Translations under genes and position numbers: made by a program | In this document: positions 1 through 7,611 of the stretch, piece after piece | Layout of the letters: each line of letters starts with the position of its first letter | How positions within the stretch are numbered: position 1 is the stretch's first letter | DNA from: Alphaproteobacteria bacterium | GTDB lineage: Bacteria; Pseudomonadota; Alphaproteobacteria; Bin95 | Direction of reading: 5' to 3' | Length of the DNA: 64,000 nucleotides | NCBI GenBank assembly: GCA_963665325.3 | Contig: OZ224045.1 | Location: 1,568,001-1,632,000, forward strand | The notes under the pieces: generated by a model | Told to the model about the DNA's origin: nothing | Database searches by the model: none | Seen by the model: only the letters and a program-made list of their open reading frames with translations

Positions 1-706
1 GGGCGATCTCGGCTCCGTCCTTGAGGTGGTGCTCGGCATTGGCTGCCAGAAGCAGGCCCGCTTCGGCCACGGTGACATGCTCGCGGATGGCGGTCAGCAC
101 GTCTTGCAGCGGTCGGCGTTCGGGACGGTGGTAATGGACGTCGTTAGTGGCGAGGAGCGGCGCGCCGGCGCGCCGGGCGAGCGCCGCCAGGCGGCCCAGG
201 CGGGCGCGGTCGCCGCCCCGGTAGAGCATGTGCGCGGCGAGGTAGAGGGGGCCGTCATGCACCCGGCGAAGCCCGGCAAGCTCCGCCTCGAATTCCTCGC
301 GCCATGGGTCCGGCGGCAGCGCGATCAGCAGCTGTCCCTCGGCATGGGCGAGCACGTCCTCCCGGTGCAGCACGCATTCGCCCTTGGCCGCGCGCCGCTG
401 GCCGAGGGTGAGCAGCCGGCAGAGGCGGCCGTAGGCGGCCCGGTCGCGGGGGTAGCAGAGCAGCGAGGCGCCATCTGCGAGGTCGAGCCGGGCCCCGGTC
501 AGGAGGCGGATGTCGGCCCGCTTCGCCGCCATATGGGCGCGCACCGCGCCGGCGAGCGTGTTGCGGTCGGCGATGCCGATGGCCGCGAGCCCGAGCCGAG
601 CGGCCTCTTCTACCAGCTCCTCCGCATGGGAGGCGCCTCTGAGGAAGCTGAAATTGCTGACCGCCTGCAATTCCGCATAAGGAATTTTGTCCGACATGCG
701 GCTCAT
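1..706 (-). CDS. dnaE2: Error-prone DNA polymerase III alpha (DnaE2/ImuC), N-terminal part; runs off the window edge
   Basis: Manual translation: MSRMSDKIPYAELQAVSNFSFLRGASHAEELV...GIADRNTLAGAVRAH (PHP domain); ATGA overlap with the imuB stop. Confidence 0.92.
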   Translation of the reverse strand, partial: MSRMSDKIPYAELQAVSNFSFLRGASHAEELVEEAARLGLAAIGIADRNTLAGAVRAHMAAKRADIRLLTGARLDLADGASLLCYPRDRAAYGRLCRLLTLGQRRAAKGECVLHREDVLAHAEGQLLIALPPDPWREEFEAELAGLRRVHDGPLYLAAHMLYRGGDRARLGRLAALARRAGAPLLATNDVHYHRPERRPLQDVLTAIREHVTVAEAGLLLAANAEHHLKDGAEIA

Positions 707-2253
707 CCGTAAAGCCCGTGGATATACCAGCGGGGCGGCTTCTTGCCATCGGTGTCCCGGTAGAGCCCGGCGCGAAAGAGCCAGTAGCGCCGGCCTTCCG
801 TGTCCTCGACGCGGTAATAGTCGCGCGGCCTGTCTTCGGGGCCGCCGGCCCACCATTCCGGTTCGATGCGCTCGGGGCCTTCGGCGCGGGCGATGCGGCG
901 GCGCAGCCGGCGCCAGGCAAACAGCGCCGGCGGCCCGTCCGGCAGCTCGGCGATGACGTCCACCGGCTCGGGCCGGTCGAACAGGCGGAAGGGCCGTTGC
1001 GGCAGGCCCGGCCGCACAGGCCATGCCGCGCCCTCCCGGCCGGGCGCCGCCCGCCGCTCGGCGCGCTCCGGCAGATGGCTCTCGACCGCTTCGAGGCGGG
1101 AGACCGACCCTTCGCCCAGGCGGGCTTGCAAGCGGTCGATCAGGGGGCCGAGTTCGTTGCTACCGCGCCCGCCCTCCGCCAGCCGAAATTGCTCATGCGC
1201 GAGCGGCTCGGCGCGGACGGCGTGGAGCGCCATTGCGTCGATCCCGAAGCCGGGGCCCACGGTCTCGATCTTCCCCTCGAAAAGGCGCAGCAGATGCGCA
1301 CCGTCGCGGGTGGCGCGCGCCGTCGAGACGCGGCGCTGCGCCGTGCCGCCATCCACCCGGCAGAACAGGAGCGAGAGTTCCCGCGCGCCGAGCCCGTCGC
1401 GTTCCAGCGAGGCGCAGAGGCCTTCCATCAGCCGGGTGAGCGCCGCCTCCAGCCCGGCGAGGTCGATCAGCGGTTCCGGGAAGGCGAGGCGCGCGAGGCA
1501 GGCGGGCGGCGGCGGCAAAGACGCGACCGGATCGGGGCGGCGGCCGAGCGCCCGGTCGAGGCGTTCCAGAACGGCGCCGCTCTGCCGGCCGAACCGGCGT
1601 GCGAGCGACGGGCGGGGCAGGGCGTCCACCGCACCGATTGTCGTCAGCCCGAGACGGCGCAGCAGGCGGGCGTCCTCGGGCGCGATCCGAAGCGCCTCGG
1701 CCGGCAGCGCCTTAAGCGCCGCGAGGGTGCCGCCGGGCGCGGCGATGCACCGGCCTTCCCCGCCGAAGCGGGCGAGTGCCCAGGCGGCGCCCGGCATATC
1801 GGCAAGGCCGGTCCGGACCTCGAAGCCGAGCCCTGCAAGGCGCGCCTCGACCTCTGCCGCCATCGCCGCCTCGCCGCCGAAAAGATGGGCGGCTCCCGCA
1901 ATGTCGAGCAACAGGCCGTCCTCGCCATCGACCGCGCAGCAGGGCGTAAAGCGGTTGCACCAGAGCGCCAGGCGTTCGAGCCCGCGCCGGTCCTCTGCCG
2001 GCCGGGCTTCGGCGGCGGCGAGGCGGGGCAGCAGGGCGCGGGCGTCGGCGAGGCGCATGCCGGGCGCGAGCCCCTCGGCTTCCGCCTGCCGGTTGACCGC
2101 CGTCAGCACCGTCCCGTGGCGGCCGGGCGCGGTAAGCGCAAACGGCACCGGCTCAGCCGGCGGCTTGCGCGAGGGCAGGGCGGCGGGCCGCCGTGCGCGG
2201 CGCAGCCGGTCGATCGGCCAGCGCGGCAGCCACACCGAAATCACCCGTCTCAC
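703..2253 (-). CDS. imuB: ImuB, Y-family polymerase-like protein
   Basis: GMRLADARALLP, DGLLLDIAG, GPERIEPEWW, RDYYRVED...W.IHGLY motifs; located between imuA and dnaE2. Confidence 0.93.
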   Translation of the reverse strand: MRRVISVWLPRWPIDRLRRARRPAALPSRKPPAEPVPFALTAPGRHGTVLTAVNRQAEAEGLAPGMRLADARALLPRLAAAEARPAEDRRGLERLALWCNRFTPCCAVDGEDGLLLDIAGAAHLFGGEAAMAAEVEARLAGLGFEVRTGLADMPGAAWALARFGGEGRCIAAPGGTLAALKALPAEALRIAPEDARLLRRLGLTTIGAVDALPRPSLARRFGRQSGAVLERLDRALGRRPDPVASLPPPPACLARLAFPEPLIDLAGLEAALTRLMEGLCASLERDGLGARELSLLFCRVDGGTAQRRVSTARATRDGAHLLRLFEGKIETVGPGFGIDAMALHAVRAEPLAHEQFRLAEGGRGSNELGPLIDRLQARLGEGSVSRLEAVESHLPERAERRAAPGREGAAWPVRPGLPQRPFRLFDRPEPVDVIAELPDGPPALFAWRRLRRRIARAEGPERIEPEWWAGGPEDRPRDYYRVEDTEGRRYWLFRAGLYRDTDGKKPPRWYIHGLYG

Positions 2254-2965
2254 GGTTCCACTCCACAGTACAGGTCACGGGCCGTCCGCCCCGGCAACGC
2301 AGCAGTTCGAGGCGCCAGCGCGGCAGGCCGGGCGCGGCGGCGTCGATCGGGTCGGCGCCTCCCGGCAGTGCCGCAATCCGCCAGCGCGAAAAGGCGGCAC
2401 TCGCCGGCCCGAGGCTGTCGCGGCGCAGCAGCAGGGCGGGGGTCAGGCTCTCGCGGGCGGCGAGCGCAAGCCGGCGGCTCAGGGTGAAATCGAGGCTTTC
2501 GACCTCGCCCAGTACCGCCGCCAGGCTGGCGCTGCGCAGGCCTTCCTCTATGGCCCAGGAAACATCCCGATCGCGGCGGGCGGAGAGCAACAGCAGGTCG
2601 GCCGGTTCGAGGCCGAGGTCCCGCCAGCCCGGCCCGTAGAGCCGGCCGAAGGGGCTCGCCCGGCTCTGGCAGACCAGCACGGCGCGCCGCCCGTCCCGGC
2701 GTTCGAGCCGGGTAATGAGCGCGGCAAGAAAGGCAGCGGCCGCCGGTCCGTCTCCCGGTGCGCTGCTGCCTGCCTCATGTAGCCCGCCCATTGCCAGTCC
2801 CCGCTCCGGCAAGGCCGCATCCAGGGCGCCGAGGCCGAACCGCCAGGCCTCCGCCGCCCCGTCCCCCGCCGGCTCCGCAACGGCTGTCCGACGCTCCAGC
2901 AGCGCTATCTGTCGGCGCAGCGCGGCAAGCTTGGCGGGGTTCTTGCGGGGGAAAACAGACAACAT
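2153..2965 (-). CDS. imuA: ImuA, RecA-like protein
   Basis: LDAALPERGLAMGGLHE, WAIEEGLRS, SRRLALAA, LELLRCRGG; ATG at 2965 next to a LexA box. Confidence 0.88.
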   Translation of the reverse strand: MLSVFPRKNPAKLAALRRQIALLERRTAVAEPAGDGAAEAWRFGLGALDAALPERGLAMGGLHEAGSSAPGDGPAAAAFLAALITRLERRDGRRAVLVCQSRASPFGRLYGPGWRDLGLEPADLLLLSARRDRDVSWAIEEGLRSASLAAVLGEVESLDFTLSRRLALAARESLTPALLLRRDSLGPASAAFSRWRIAALPGGADPIDAAAPGLPRWRLELLRCRGGRPVTCTVEWNRETGDFGVAAALADRPAAPRTAARRPALAQAAG

Positions 2966-2967
2966 AA

Positions 2968-2982
2968 GTTCATTATTTGTTC
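2968..2982. promoter_or_regulatory. Alphaproteobacterial LexA (SOS) box GTTC-N7-GTTC
   Basis: GTTCATTATTTGTTC just upstream of imuA, overlapping a minus-strand TTGACT-N17-AATAAT promoter. Confidence 0.9.
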
Positions 2983-3094
2983 CAGTTACGGATGAGTCAA
3001 TAGGGAGGAGAGCCCTCTGCCCCTTGACCGGCCCGGCCGTCTGGCGCACAGAATTGCCGGCAGCGTCGCCGAACGAACCGACTGGGCCCGGCCG

Positions 3095-3625
3095 ATGACC
3101 GCTATCGACACGATGCAGGACAGTGACTGGCCCGAGGTCCGCGCCATCTACCGTGCGGGCTTGAAGACCGGCATTGCCGCCTTCATGAAAAATCCGCCGA
3201 GCTGGAAGGCATGGAACAAAGGTCATCTGGCCGTCGGCCGGCTCGTCGTCCGGGGCAGCGACGGCCGCACGGTCGGCTGGGCGGCGCTCACGCCCGCGCC
3301 GGATACGTGAGGCGCTCCCGGCGTCGCTGAGGTCAGCGTCTATGTCGGCGAAGGTGCGCAGGGGTCGGGCGCCGGAACCGCCCTGCTGGAGGGCTTGGTC
3401 GCAGCCTCCGAGGCGGAGGGCTACTGGACCCTGCAGGCGCAGATCATGGCCGCGAACCTGCCCAGCATCGCGCTCCACCGGAAATGCGGCTTCCGCGAGG
3501 TCGGTTTCCGCGAGCGCTACGGGCATCTCGACGGCGTGTGGCACGATGTCTTCCTGTTCGAGCGCCGCAGCGTCCGCGCCGGCGGGCCGGGTCTGCCGAC
3601 AAGGAGCTGCGACGAGGCGGGCTGA
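3095..3625 (+). CDS. GNAT N-acetyltransferase (Pat/YncA/ArsN1-like) with in-frame TGA at 3308-3310; probable selenoprotein, alternatively a pseudogene
   Basis: ORFs 3095..3310 and 3395..3625 share a frame; read-through gives GWAALTPAPDT-U-GAPGVAEVSVYV...QGSGAG...NLPSIALHRKCGFREVG. Confidence 0.8.
3318..3348 (+). promoter_or_regulatory. Putative bacterial SECIS hairpin
   Basis: CCGGCGT-CGCTG-[AGGT]-CAGCG-TCT-ATGTCGG; apical loop begins 19 nt after the UGA. Confidence 0.65.
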
Positions 3626-3643
3626 CGACGGATCGGGGCCGGG

Positions 3644-3997
3644 TCAGGGCTCGCGCGAGAGGCCGCTCGCTTCCAGCGCCTTCAGATAGGCGTCCCAGAG
3701 TTCTGACCGGCGTTCGCCGAGTTCGCGCAGATAGGCCCAGCTGTAGATGCCGGTGTCGTGCAGGTCGTCGAACACCAGACGGACGGCGTAATTGCCTTCG
3801 GGCAGGATTTCGATGATGCCGACATGGGCGCGACCCGAAACCAGCGTCTTGCGCCCAGGGCCGTGGCCCTGCACTTCGGCGGAGGGGCTCTCGACGCGCA
3901 GGAGCTCGGCCGGCAGGGCGAAATTCGCGCCGTCGTCGAAGGCGACATGCAACACACGCCCAGCTTTGGAATAGCGCAACTCCGTCGGGAGGCTCAA
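3644..3997 (-). CDS. DUF971 / gamma-butyrobetaine hydroxylase-like N-terminal domain protein
   Basis: [36 protein letters not shown]. Confidence 0.88.
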
Positions 3998-4188
3998 CGT
4001 CCTTCCTCGTCGAGTTCCCGCGCCTCCTCGACCAGCATGATCGGGATGCCGTCGCGGATCGGGAAGGCCAGTCCCGCCGAACGGCTGACCAGCTCCCCCG
4101 CCTCGCGGTCGTATTCCAGCGGCCCCTTGGTCACCGGGCAGACCAGCAATTGCAGCAGCAGCCGATCGACCTCTCCCGAACCCGTCAT
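3994..4188 (-). CDS. Trm112-family protein
   Basis: [11 protein letters not shown]...[12 protein letters not shown]. Confidence 0.88.
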
Positions 4189-4196
4189 CGCTCGCC

Positions 4197-4850
4197 TCAA
4201 TTCATCCGCGTCGGGTCGTCGTCATTCGCAGCCTCGAAGCCCGACATCGCGAACAGCGCCTCCAGCATCTGGGCGCGCTCGCCCGTGTCGCGGCATTCGA
4301 GCAGTCCCTGCTTCTCATTGGGTGCGAAGGGGCAGCCCATGGAGAGCGCATTGACCAGCATTTCGTCGTCGGCCTTCGCCACGGCGTCCCAGTCTGCGCT
4401 GAGCCCGCGCCGCGCCAGAAATTCCCTGAGCGCTTCCAGCAGGCTCTCGCGGTCCACCGGGCTGCTGCGGCGCGCATCGAGATCGGCCCCGAAGCCCTCG
4501 AATTCCGCGTGGACGGTGCGGTAGCCCTCGGGATGGAGTGCAAGCTCCCGGCCGATGCGGAAGCGCGCGATGCCTTGCAGTGCGATCATGTAGCGGCCGT
4601 CGTCGAGCTTTTCCGAGCTCTGGATCTTGCCGGCGCAGCCGATCTCGTAAATCGGCGGGTTCGTCGGGTCGGCTCCCTCGGCGCGCGGCTGCACCATGCC
4701 GACGATCCCCTCGTCGTCCAGCGCATCGCGGACCATGGCCCGATAGCGGGGTTCGAAAATGTGCAGCGGCAGCATCGCGCGCGGCAGCAACAGCACGCCG
4801 GCCAGCGGAAAGACCGGGAACACTTCCGGCAATGACCGCCTGAGGGACAC
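4197..4850 (-). CDS. LON peptidase substrate-binding domain protein
   Basis: [12 protein letters not shown]...[16 protein letters not shown]. Confidence 0.9.
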
Positions 4851-4862
4851 AGGGATCGCTCC

Positions 4863-5753
4863 CTAGCTGAACATCAGTGTCGAGAGGCGTCGCCGGATGC
4901 CGGTCGTGAGTTCGTGCGTCGGCCCCCACGCCTCGAAGAATTTGACGAGTTGGCCACGCGCCGCTCCGTCGTTCCAATCGCGGTCGCGGCGATAGAGTTC
5001 CAGCAGTTCCTCCGCCGCCTCTTTGTGGCGTCCGCCGCCGAACAACGCCATCGCGAGATCGAAACGCGACTGGTGGTCGTCCGGATTGCCGTCTACCGCG
5101 CGGCGCAGTTCGGCCGTGTCGCCCGCATCCGCGCTCTGCTCGGCAAGTTCCACCGCGCTCACCGCGGCCGCCACTGCCGGGTCGCGGTCCGAACCCTCCG
5201 GCAGCCGCCCCAGCATGGCGCGCGCCTGCTCGACCTCGTCTACGGCGAGGAGTACCTGGGCAAGGCCGGCAATCGCAGCGGCGTTCTCAGGCTCCTGCTT
5301 GAGCACTTCGTTGAAGATCGCGCCGGCGGTCTGCGCATCGCCGCCCTCCAGCGCCGAACGGGCCTGTTCGACGGCGACCTCGATGGCGGACTCCACGGGT
5401 TCACCCACCAGTCGCTCGACGAACGCCTTGATCTGGCTCTCCGGCACCGCGCCCATGAACGCATCGACGGGGCGCCCCTGATCGAAGGCATAGACCGCCG
5501 GGATGGACTGGATGCGCATCTGCTGCGCGACCACGGGGCTCTGGTCGATATCGACCTTGACCAGGCTGACCTTGCCGCCGGCATTGGAGACGACCTTTTC
5601 CAGCACCGGTCCCAATTGCTTGCAGGGCCCGCACCAGGGCGCCCAGAAATCGACGATCACCGGCGCCGTCATCGATGCCTCGATGACATCCGCCATGAAG
5701 GTCTGGTCGGTGGCGTCCTTCACGACGCCGGGTTCGCTTGCCGCAATCTCCAT
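4863..5753 (-). CDS. ybbN: Thioredoxin-domain/TPR co-chaperone (YbbN/CnoX-like)
   Basis: WAPWCGPCKQL followed by TPR region; C-terminus RRRLSTLMFS. Confidence 0.88.
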   Translation of the reverse strand: MEIAASEPGVVKDATDQTFMADVIEASMTAPVIVDFWAPWCGPCKQLGPVLEKVVSNAGGKVSLVKVDIDQSPVVAQQMRIQSIPAVYAFDQGRPVDAFMGAVPESQIKAFVERLVGEPVESAIEVAVEQARSALEGGDAQTAGAIFNEVLKQEPENAAAIAGLAQVLLAVDEVEQARAMLGRLPEGSDRDPAVAAAVSAVELAEQSADAGDTAELRRAVDGNPDDHQSRFDLAMALFGGGRHKEAAEELLELYRRDRDWNDGAARGQLVKFFEAWGPTHELTTGIRRRLSTLMFS

Positions 5754-5831
5754 CTTTCTACCCCGGTTTCGGGACGGCTTCTGCAAGATGGCGGCAGAGC
5801 CGCCCGGCGGCAACCCCTGCGCCATTCGGCG

Positions 5832-7505
5832 TCAGAACAGGCCGACGACCTCCCCGCCCTCATCGAGACCGATGGCTTCGGCAGCCGGCACGCGCGGCAG
5901 GCCCGGCATGGTCATGATGTCGCCGCAGACCGCGACCACGAACTCCGCGCCGGCTGCAAGCCGTACCTCCCGGACCGGGATGCTGTAGCCCTCCGGCGCA
6001 CCCCTGAGCGTGGGATCGGAAGAGAAACTGTATTGCGTCTTCGCCATGCAGACCGGCACATGGCCGAACCCGCCGGCCTCGAAGCGCTCGAGCTGGTCCT
6101 TGACCCGCGCCGGCGCCTCCGCTCCGTCGGCGCGGTAGATCTCCAGCGCGACGGTCTCGATCTTCTCCCAGAGCGGCAGCCCATCCGGATAGACCGGGGT
6201 GAATTCGGCGTCGCCGCTGTCGGCGAGCGCGGCGACCGCCTGCGCCAGGCTCTCCGTGCCCGCACCGCCGTCGGCCCAGTGGGTGCAGACATGCGCCGAT
6301 GCGCCGCGCTCGGCCGCAAGGCCCTGCACCGCCGCGATCTCCGCATCGGTGTCGGCGGTGAAGCGGTTGACGGCCACGACCGCTGGCACGCCGAACTTGG
6401 CGAGATTGTCGAGATGGCGGCCGAGATTGGCGAAGCCCCTCTCGACGGCGGCGACATCCTCTTCGCCCAGCGCACCCCGCGCAATGCCGCCATGCATCTT
6501 GAGCGCACGCACCGTTGCGACCAGCACCACCGCGTCGGGCTTGAGCTCCGCCTTGCGGCATTTGATGTCGAAGAATTTCTCCGCGCCGAGATCCGCTCCG
6601 AAGCCAGCCTCGGTAACGACATAATCGGCGAGCTTGAGCGCAGCCCGGGTCGCGACCACGCTATTGCAGCCATGCGCGATATTGGCGAACGGACCGCCGT
6701 GCACGAAGGCCGGGTTGCCTTCCAGCGTCTGCACAAGGTTCGGCTGCAGCGCATCCTTCAGCAGCACGGTCATCGCGCCGTCGGCTTTCAGGTCGCTCGC
6801 CGAGACCGGCGACTGGTCGCGGCGTCCGCCGACGACGATCTGGCCGAGCCGGCGCTGGAGGTCCGCCCGGTCAGAGGCGAGGCAGAGGATCGCCATGATC
6901 TCCGAGGCCACGGTGATGTCGTAGCCGGTCTGGCGCGGGAAGCCGTTGGCGACGCCACCGAGCGAGACCGCGATGTCGCGGAGCGCCCGGTCGTTCATGT
7001 CCACCACGCGCCGCCAGGTAACGCGCCGCGCATCCAGTTCCAGCCCGTTGCCCCAGTAAATGTGGTTGTCCGCCATGGCCGAAAGCAGGTTGTGCGCGGC
7101 GCCGATGGCGTGCATGTCGCCGGTGAAATGGAGATTGATGTCCTCCATCGGCACGACCTGGGCGTAGCCGCCGCCGGCCGCACCGCCCTTCATGCCGAAA
7201 CAGGGGCCGAGCGAGGGCTCGCGCAGGCAGATCGCCGTGTTCCGGCCGATTCGGTTCAGGCCGTCTCCGAGGCCGACCGTGGTGGTCGTCTTGCCTTCGC
7301 CTGCGGGCGTCGGCGTCATGGCGGTCACCAGGATGAGCTTGCCGTCGGGCCGATCTGCCAGGCCGTCGATGAAATCCGCCGTCACCTTGGCCTTGTCGTG
7401 GCCGTAAGGCACCAGCGCGCTTTCGGGAATTCCGAGCCGCGCGGCGATCTCGCCGATCGGCCGCAGCCGCGCTTCGCGGGCAATTTGGATGTCGCTCTTG
7501 GCCAT
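5832..7505 (-). CDS. fhs: Formate--tetrahydrofolate ligase
   Basis: [44 protein letters not shown]. Confidence 0.97.
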
Positions 7506-7611
7506 GGGGACGCCTTCTCCTCGCCGGACGGAAGGGGCGCAGAATGACAAGCCCGCGCGCTTGGCGCAAACGCCTAATACGCACGCCCGGAAGAACCTGC
7601 TGCGGCTGGAT

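Follow-up and report, generated by a model that had tools for sequence, protein, structure and literature searches.

Near the start of a 64,000-nucleotide stretch of an alphaproteobacterial genome (GenBank assembly GCA_963665325.3, contig OZ224045.1, positions 1,568,001–1,632,000 of the forward strand; hereafter, the window), an open reading frame (ORF) for a GNAT-family acetyltransferase carries a TGA at codon 72. This raises the question of whether the TGA is a stop that divides or inactivates the gene or a translated codon and, if the latter, which residue it specifies. The original prediction, made from the letters alone, held that the TGA encodes selenocysteine (Sec, U) in an otherwise complete GNAT and that the hairpin directly after it is a selenocysteine insertion sequence (SECIS). 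The comparison with other genomes reported here supports that proposal through the TGA itself, the hairpin, the selenocysteine machinery and the cysteine-bearing homologs, and the gene, which we call Sec-GNAT, very probably encodes a selenoprotein of the GNAT superfamily that is closest to the PAT/ArsN1/MddA group.

Inspection of the ORF revealed one internal in-frame TGA on the plus strand (coordinates of all features are collected in Table 1). The product obtained by reading through it, with the peptide ...APDT-U-GAPGVAEVSVYVGEGAQ... around codon 72, matches the GNAT Pfam models PF00583 (1.4e-13; 51.6 bits against a gathering cut-off of 20.7), PF13420, PF13302 and PF13508, confirming the description of a single GNAT split by a single TGA. 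Among NCBIfam models, the best match of the read-through protein is ArsN1a, at a score below the equivalog cut-off; the cut-offs of NF040503, NF040504 and NF040502 all lie above the scores obtained (ArsN1a, 111.3 versus 170 bits; ArsN1b, 54.8 versus 210 bits; PAT, 53.8 versus 300 bits). Under genetic code 11, the locus yields instead an ORF of 71 aa upstream of the TGA and one of 76 aa downstream, starting from TTG 3395. Contigs from RNA libraries of four runs cover positions 3043–3479 in pieces, with none over 2950–3042 or 3480–3750. Three of these records, from two of the runs, cross the TGA and leave it unchanged, which argues against a sequencing error. The contigs give a weak indication that the locus is transcribed, as RNA libraries can contain DNA, and do not address its level.

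The TGA is also present beyond this strain. When 61 related genomes were searched in six frames, it stood at one column in all 20 orthologs, which are 62–99% identical, align without gaps and comprise 14 of the 17 genomes of the window's genus (its own included) and six from three other genera. The motif around the TGA in these orthologs reads P-[AV]-P-D-T-TGA-G-A-[AP]-G-V-A-E-V-S-V-Y. When 401 genomes sampled evenly from the class were searched with a profile of the family, five genomes scored at ~283 bits, all with the TGA, and the next match, at 196 bits, was without it. This gap marks the Sec-GNAT subfamily off sharply, and within the genomes sampled its members always carry the TGA. A DNA pattern search of species-representative genomes returned 60 further loci, all from metagenome-assembled genomes (MAGs) labeled Rhodospirillales, Rhodospirillaceae, Hyphomicrobiales, Hyphomicrobiaceae, Devosia, Paracoccaceae, Granulosicoccaceae, Pseudohongiella or Alphaproteobacteria; the pattern itself was fixed for the TGA and for the peptide D-T-TGA-G-A-x-G-V-A-E-V-S-V-Y but open at synonymous positions. 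A second lineage is represented by 11 marine contigs of 34–42% GC whose DNA has TGA at the Sec column (25 of 56 metagenome loci were translated). Overall, the TGA recurs at ~100 loci in Alpha- and Gammaproteobacteria MAGs and in these low-GC marine contigs.

Protein databases print other residues at this column. The top matches to the read-through protein, P0002–P0004 (173 aa), have Leu or Trp there, and the P0004 cluster consists mainly of C-terminal fragments of 72–99 aa, one of which, from a SAR324 cluster bacterium, is named a GNAT by NCBI. Because the DNA of such contigs has TGA at the column, the Trp is most simply explained by gene calls made under a table that reads TGA as Trp (code 4).

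The sequences on the two sides of the TGA carry the marks of one protein. The ratio of nonsynonymous to synonymous substitution rates (dN/dS, by the Nei-Gojobori method) is 0.07–0.42 upstream of the TGA in six of eight ortholog pairs (dS was saturated in the other two) and 0.09–0.31 downstream in all eight pairs, the latter indicating that the downstream half is translated. Judged from these ratios, both halves are under purifying selection in one frame. The frame is gap-free across 19 orthologs, which show ordinary synonymous variation at codons +1 to +4 and from +11 onward. Codons +1 to +28, which separate the TGA from the first possible downstream start (TTG 3395), are conserved at the protein level, and they encode the acetyl-CoA motif together with the central strand VAEVSVYV. 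Neither a split gene nor a dead one fits.

The hairpin begins 8 nt after UGA72. Folding of its 31 nt with ViennaRNA returned precisely the stems, UCU bulge, AGGU loop and 19-nt spacing that the original prediction had drawn, with a minimum free energy (MFE) of −14.7 kcal/mol and z = −3.5, and none of 200 shuffled sequences was as stable. In PMC13188914, the bacterial SECIS (bSECIS) model is described as having a loop of 3–9 nt, an upper stem of 4–16 bp, a UGA-to-loop distance of 16–37 nt, an MFE ≤ −7.5 kcal/mol, and a G at loop position 1 or 2 that precedes a G or U. The present hairpin agrees with that description on every count, having a 4-nt loop, a 5-bp upper stem, a G at loop position 2 followed by G, and the spacing and MFE given above.

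Comparative evidence for the hairpin comes from codon usage. Codons +5 to +10 (GTC GCT GAG GTC AGC GTC) are each a single codon in 19 of 19 orthologs, and elsewhere in the gene this holds for only 2 of 64 degenerate columns at which the amino acid is invariant. All 60 pattern loci read GTCGCTGAGGTCAGCGT at the free positions. The core formed by the upper stem, the loop and one flanking U on either side occupies columns 23–38 of alignment A3, and in 81 unique 66-nt regions it is invariant except at column 36, where 79 have C and 2 have U, with a G-U pair retained; five of the 16 core columns are synonymous sites that the selecting pattern had left free. The same core is found in the 34–42% GC marine contigs, and the SECIS apex is identical in genomes ranging from 34% to 70% GC. 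As a control, the peptide G-V-A-E-V-S-V was examined in homologs without the TGA, where its nine occurrences are encoded by seven distinct codon strings, one of the seven matching the core. By contrast, 108 occurrences adjacent to a TGA (some loci being duplicated) keep the core, except for one Ile codon and wobble. We regard this control as decisive: the codons are frozen solely in TGA-bearing genes. On this pattern, the apex is under a sequence-specific constraint at the RNA level, which we do not count as covariation support.

The window's genome (G000) encodes all four components of the selenocysteine machinery, with selA (535 bits), selB (442 bits), selD (271 bits) and selC, the tRNA-Sec (72.6 bits), over their curated cut-offs. 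Among the related genomes, selB exceeds its cut-off in 18 of the 20 carriers, and it does so in 10 of 10 further carriers picked across named taxa, versus only 4 of 24 class genomes outside the window's family. Although kinship inflates these counts, the direction is clear: selB co-occurs with Sec-GNAT. The neighborhoods of selAB and of tRNA-Sec held no selenoprotein lead. A Sec-containing formate dehydrogenase was sought as a reference SECIS and rejected, all formate dehydrogenase alpha-like matches being without an in-frame TGA. The selD match (L010, G000:C1:979117–980004) lies in a 730-aa open frame with no internal stop, which suggests a fusion protein whose SelD is not itself a selenoprotein.

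Homologs point to the residue that selenocysteine would have replaced. In the alignment, the Sec column is Cys in 17 of 20 full-length homologs (consensus LSPVSDRCVYAGVAEVSVYV), so the string given in the original prediction for Pat/YncA/ArsN1-like proteins, with the TGA placed on its Cys, was essentially right. The family also shares a C-terminal tail, G-[GA]-x-x-L-x4-C, in 78 of 80 unique proteins, in which the Cys lies 1–8 residues from the C-terminus; the two exceptions (L076 and L098) appear frame-shifted, and Cys172 does not vary in any of the 36 family members compared. When 36 Sec forms and 26 homologs, with rows hand-chosen from the best-listed matches of two homolog searches, were placed in a maximum-likelihood tree, the Sec forms fell into one clade (support 99/92), with the Leu variant P0002 nested within it. 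Among the members of the sister clade are proteins in which Cys occupies the Sec column and the tail is of the GGP..C type. Because the Sec forms are monophyletic and the sister clade has both of these features, the tree points to a single change from a Cys/Cys ancestor to Sec/Cys. The window's genome also encodes a paralog (L051, G000:C1:2513602–2514120) of 50% identity, which lacks the tail and whose residue at the Sec column is Pro (SSRPVYAG); the one TGA within this match is apparently its own terminal stop.

The protein modeled with AlphaFold2 (mean predicted local distance difference test score (pLDDT) of 87.8) adopts a GNAT fold that spans the TGA, and Foldseek matched it to PA4866, P. 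syringae PAT, BAR, ArsN1, YncA and MddA with template modeling (TM) scores of 0.77–0.84 at 23–32% identity. GNAT enzymes bind the pyrophosphate of acetyl-CoA through a Q/R-x-x-G-x-G/A motif, and this motif is present in the window protein (Table 1). Invariant in 36 of 36 family members are the Glu of VAEVSVYV, G92, N121 and S124. In PpArsN1, residues Arg75, Ala76, Arg77 and Tyr80 of the partner chain form and gate the substrate site, as described in PMC6465285. The profile alignment to 9igk sets the Sec column on the first Ala of R-P-R-A-A-Y, opposite P-D-T-U-G-A of the window protein. Sec72 would accordingly take the place of the residue right after the second Arg of the ArsN1 loop, where we infer the residue-for-residue match to ArsN1 numbering. 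In this alignment, the Arg-x-Arg...Tyr substrate loop of ArsN1/PAT is absent from Sec-GNAT: in the Sec forms, the loop Arg is Thr, the Tyr is Ala and the ATFET segment has become AAFxx. The homolog alignment likewise contains the ATFET-to-AAFMK change and the loss of Arg and Tyr that had been noticed at the outset. These altered loops may reflect a different substrate or chemistry.

Comparison across the loci shows UGA72 to be a codon that is evidently decoded, with the invariant apical hairpin as its putative decoding signal and with the selenocysteine machinery co-occurring. According to the mechanism that we propose, the apical CGCUG-AGGU-CAGCG stem-loop would be presented during translation to SelB carrying Sec-tRNA(Sec), and the ribosome would insert selenocysteine at UGA72 rather than terminate. 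Sec72 would then lie within the loop that bears the substrate-binding Arg-x-x-Tyr in PAT/ArsN1 enzymes and, in the dimer, this loop would reach the acceptor site of the partner subunit. Retention of the acetyl-CoA motif and of Glu79, the general base, makes it most likely that the enzyme continues to depend on acyl-CoA. The target of the selenol could be the acceptor substrate or the acetyl group, and Sec72 could be paired with the invariant Cys172 of the flexible tail via a selenenylsulfide. The family would have arisen once, from Cys-bearing relatives; today it ranges over several proteobacterial orders and low-GC marine contigs.

The function of Sec72 is a matter for greater reserve. A catalytic role, rather than one that is merely regulatory or structural, is conceivable but doubtful. 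Equally tentative is the proposal that Sec-GNAT is the first selenoenzyme on an acyl-CoA transferase scaffold, with Sec72 as the catalytic nucleophile in a chemistry new for GNATs. Under that proposal, one possibility is that the acetyl group of acetyl-CoA is taken up as a Se-acetyl (selenoester) intermediate. Another is that Sec72 and Cys172 capture or reduce an oxidised-sulfur, selenium or arsenic amino-acid analog, perhaps in the pocket that accommodates methionine sulfoximine, phosphinothricin or arsinothricin in relatives.

Several observations weigh against the selenoprotein assignment or the functional proposals built on it. Two carriers are without a full selB at E ≤ 1e-60: G002, an assembly of 550 contigs, has no match, and in G013 the match is partial, spanning model positions 1–160 only. 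In addition, G001, G004 and G012, which belong to the same genus, have selB without a Sec-GNAT ortholog. Related genomes are not independent, and the counts overstate the number of independent observations. As for the RNA, covariation in the hairpin is not significant across 20 orthologs, one pair having changed on both sides without exceeding the shuffle control, a test made uninformative by the invariance of the upper stem. The lower stem is partly kept, with pair 17–47 broken in 6 of 19 sequences, and RNAalifold proposes another, weak lower pairing. Rfam gave no SECIS match in window positions 3200–3450, where its two unrelated matches are at chance level (E = 3.9 and 9.7). Only the 31-nt and 21-nt hairpins stand out from shuffled sequences; longer single-sequence folds of this GC-rich region match their shuffles (z = −0.46 for 61 nt and −0.62 for 40 nt), and the case for the hairpin therefore rests on comparison, not on energy alone. 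As for the protein, P0002, a clade member known from a single metagenome contig, has Leu at the Sec column. No Cys ortholog with the same tail was found within the clade among the best 120 and best 150 matches or in the 401-genome sample. The AlphaFold2 model is confident for the GNAT core but not for residues 168–176, and the tail has a pLDDT <50. Across 80 loci, no partner gene was common beyond close relatives, and the substrate was not narrowed by this route. Finally, the frame is broken near the N-terminus in L040 (from G027) and lost after the acetyl-CoA motif in L076 and L098; these three and P0002 may be decaying copies or assembly errors.

The broken frames of L040, L076 and L098 are what a pseudogene, or a TGA produced by sequencing or assembly error, would lead one to expect. 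That explanation is nonetheless exceedingly improbable, since the same TGA stands in ~100 independently assembled loci, dN/dS is well under 1 on both of its sides, and the contigs of two RNA-library runs bridge it unchanged. If the TGA were instead a real stop, the gene would be a split or truncated GNAT producing a 71-residue N-terminal fragment and possibly a separately initiated C-terminal one. The two ORFs called under code 11 (71 aa, and 76 aa from TTG 3395) have this form, as do the relatives annotated publicly as C-terminal fragments of 72–99 aa. However, a real stop leaves unexplained the protein-level conservation of codons +1 to +28 with their strand and acetyl-CoA motif, the gap-free frame in 19 orthologs and a modeled fold that runs across the TGA, and we consider it very improbable.

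Another alternative accepts that the TGA is read but dispenses with the selenocysteine machinery: near-cognate read-through, stimulated by the hairpin, would insert Trp, Cys or Arg and produce an ordinary GNAT. The identity of the inserted residue is indeed deduced from comparison, the hairpin has neither significant covariation nor an Rfam SECIS match, and public marine gene calls print W at the column, though code 4 explains these. Yet the hairpin agrees with the bSECIS model on every count and has AGGUC in common with E. coli fdhF at nearly equal spacing, while selB is present in 18 of 20 and 10 of 10 carriers compared with 4 of 24 background genomes. Moreover, Cys at the column in homologs is the usual Sec/Cys pattern, and although a sense codon would be the cheaper way to specify a standard residue, the TGA has been retained in ~100 loci. 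We judge near-cognate read-through to be improbable and favor decoding of UGA72 as selenocysteine.

Five further candidate selenoprotein genes, each with a TGA at the known Sec position of its family, are located in the same genome outside the window (Table 1). They comprise two PrdB/GrdB-like proteins (U-P-N-C and U-P-V-C), a PrxQ-type peroxiredoxin (T-x-x-U), a glutaredoxin-DinB fusion (U-x-x-C) and a 574-aa UGSC-family protein, and all are below equivalog cut-offs. These candidates were obtained from a relaxed genome scan for TGA-interrupted coding frames combined with a filter for bSECIS-like hairpins, and because the filter imposed their loop features, these are not independent evidence. 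Two other genome scans were also run: one for AGGT loops was unspecific, and one based on codon scores had thresholds so strict that Sec-GNAT itself failed.

The annotated neighbors of Sec-GNAT across 80 loci are CobS, a histidine kinase, an SDR, a histidine phosphatase and a LON N-terminal domain protein. The last of these clusters with a neighbor of the distant marine locus L132 (L132:574–1212; 8 loci), and its adjacency to Sec-GNAT is probably a coincidence with a housekeeping cluster. In the window, minus-strand ORFs run along positions 3644–7550, downstream of Sec-GNAT. Just upstream, positions 2–2253 (minus strand) hold large ORFs of 341 aa (open-ended) and 516 aa that by eye resemble an error-prone polymerase cassette of the DnaE2, ImuB type. 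A repeated frame, ...DAVQAHEGVEDDEAG-TGA-DALHRLDQALAIGAM..., occurs at ~30 places on G000 contigs C1–C5, one of them at window position ~60969; the frame probably represents the antisense strand of an insertion sequence.

Table 1 Coordinates of Sec-GNAT features (window positions) and of further candidate selenoprotein loci (genome:contig:positions)
Feature	Position	Strand	Remarks
Sec-GNAT coding sequence	3095..3625	+	176 codons plus terminal TGA; ATG at 3095
In-frame TGA, codon 72 of 176	3308..3310	+	Predicted Sec codon
SECIS hairpin (putative)	3318..3348	+	ViennaRNA fold; bSECIS model of PMC13188914
Hairpin lower stem CCGGCGU/AUGUCGG	3318-3324 with 3342-3348	+	7 bp
Hairpin upper stem CGCUG/CAGCG	3325-3329 with 3334-3338	+	5 bp
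Hairpin loop AGGU	3330-3333	+	Starts 19 nt after UGA
Hairpin bulge UCU	3339-3341	+	3' side
Invariant core U-CGCUG-AGGU-CAGCG-U	3324..3339	+	Overlaps codons V77-V82
Acetyl-CoA pyrophosphate-binding motif Q89-x-x-G92-x-G94	3359..3376	+	Q89-G-S-G92-A-G94 in window protein
C-terminal tail G163-G-P-G-L-P-T-R-S-C172	3581..3610	+	Cys172 codon 3608-3610
Terminal stop TGA	3623-3625	+	End of Sec-GNAT ORF
Further candidate L190	G000:C1:281433-282686		
Further candidate L191	G000:C4:442352-443233		
Further candidate L192	G000:C5:230353-230790		
Further candidate L193	G000:C3:315667-316707		
Further candidate L194	G000:C1:733746-735467	-	

The original prediction had remarked that GNATs were not recognized as a standard selenoprotein family, and the literature examined bears this out. 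Table 1 of PMC13188914 (2026, Zhang and colleagues) contains 119 prokaryotic selenoprotein families and subfamilies, described by its authors as the most comprehensive inventory, and none is a GNAT or acetyltransferase family. The main texts of PMC13188914, PMC12013277 (deep-Sep), PMC2398784, PMC1088965 and PMC1976440 (the last three together being the GOS, Sargasso and Olavius selenoproteome papers) never use the word "acetyltransferase", although candidate lists in the supplements may hold a mention of the family. A full-text literature search produced no relevant paper on a Sec-GNAT, and Sec-GNAT matched no selenoprotein model in NCBIfam release 20. Among the matches listed from a set of 5.8 billion protein clusters, no full-length form exceeded 59% identity. 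It is highly probable that Sec-GNAT constitutes a new selenoprotein family, one that would combine the ordinary bSECIS mechanism with a known fold.

Such a family would extend selenoproteins to a superfamily not known for selenium, with the selenocysteine in an acceptor-binding loop and not in a thioredoxin-like motif. It may carry new enzyme chemistry, and the Sec72/Cys172 pair provides a testable hypothesis on new GNAT chemistry or on redox control. Because gene callers split or truncate Sec-GNAT everywhere, the family is misannotated across several proteobacterial orders and low-GC marine contigs; one 99-residue fragment, for example, bears the NCBI name "GNAT family N-acetyltransferase". 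The identity of the apex from 34% to 70% GC makes the element an unusually clean natural case for SelB recognition, and the frozen 16-nt core supplies a precise search key for more members.

Compared with known systems, the decoding element most resembles that of E. coli fdhF. In both, the element is part of the coding region, follows the UGA directly on its 3' side and has a small apical loop with GGU; AGGUC stands at the apex of both, at a distance from the UGA of 17 nt in fdhF (K-12 record) and 19 nt here. The two differ in their stem sequences, in the 3-nt bulge on the 3' side that is present here and in the predicted register of the loop, which is shifted by one base (an A-U pair closes GGUC in fdhF; a G-C pair closes AGGU in Sec-GNAT). 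In common with the 119 catalogued families, Sec-GNAT has one Sec, a bSECIS within the coding sequence, Cys homologs and a partner Cys. Those families, however, are mostly of the thioredoxin fold or of UxxC/CxxU redox type, whereas the partner Cys here is 100 residues away, on a tail. Cys homologs of the same GNAT subgroup (consensus SPVSDRCVYAGVAEVSVYV) are 52–59% identical to Sec-GNAT, with the same strand and motifs and Cys at the Sec column, and several have Cys-bearing tails (P0007 and P0013, with the tail GGPSICGKERVL, and also P0153 and P0172). Unlike Sec-GNAT, they keep the substrate-loop Arg and Tyr and have no TGA and no frozen codons, and most are without the tail. The solved structures of PAT, ArsN1, MddA, YncA and PA4866 (PDB 9igk/9igl, 5wph, 5t7e, 2j8m and 3dr6) have the same GNAT fold, with profile E-values down to 4e-22, and Sec-GNAT has in common with this group the general-base Glu of the strand VAEVSVYV, the motif Q/R-x-x-G-x-G/A and positions N121 and S124. 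It departs from the group in the replacement of the R-x-R-x-x-Y loop by P-D-T-U-G-A, in the change of ATFET to AAFxx and in the addition of a GGxxLxxxxC tail, and no solved member of the group contains selenocysteine.

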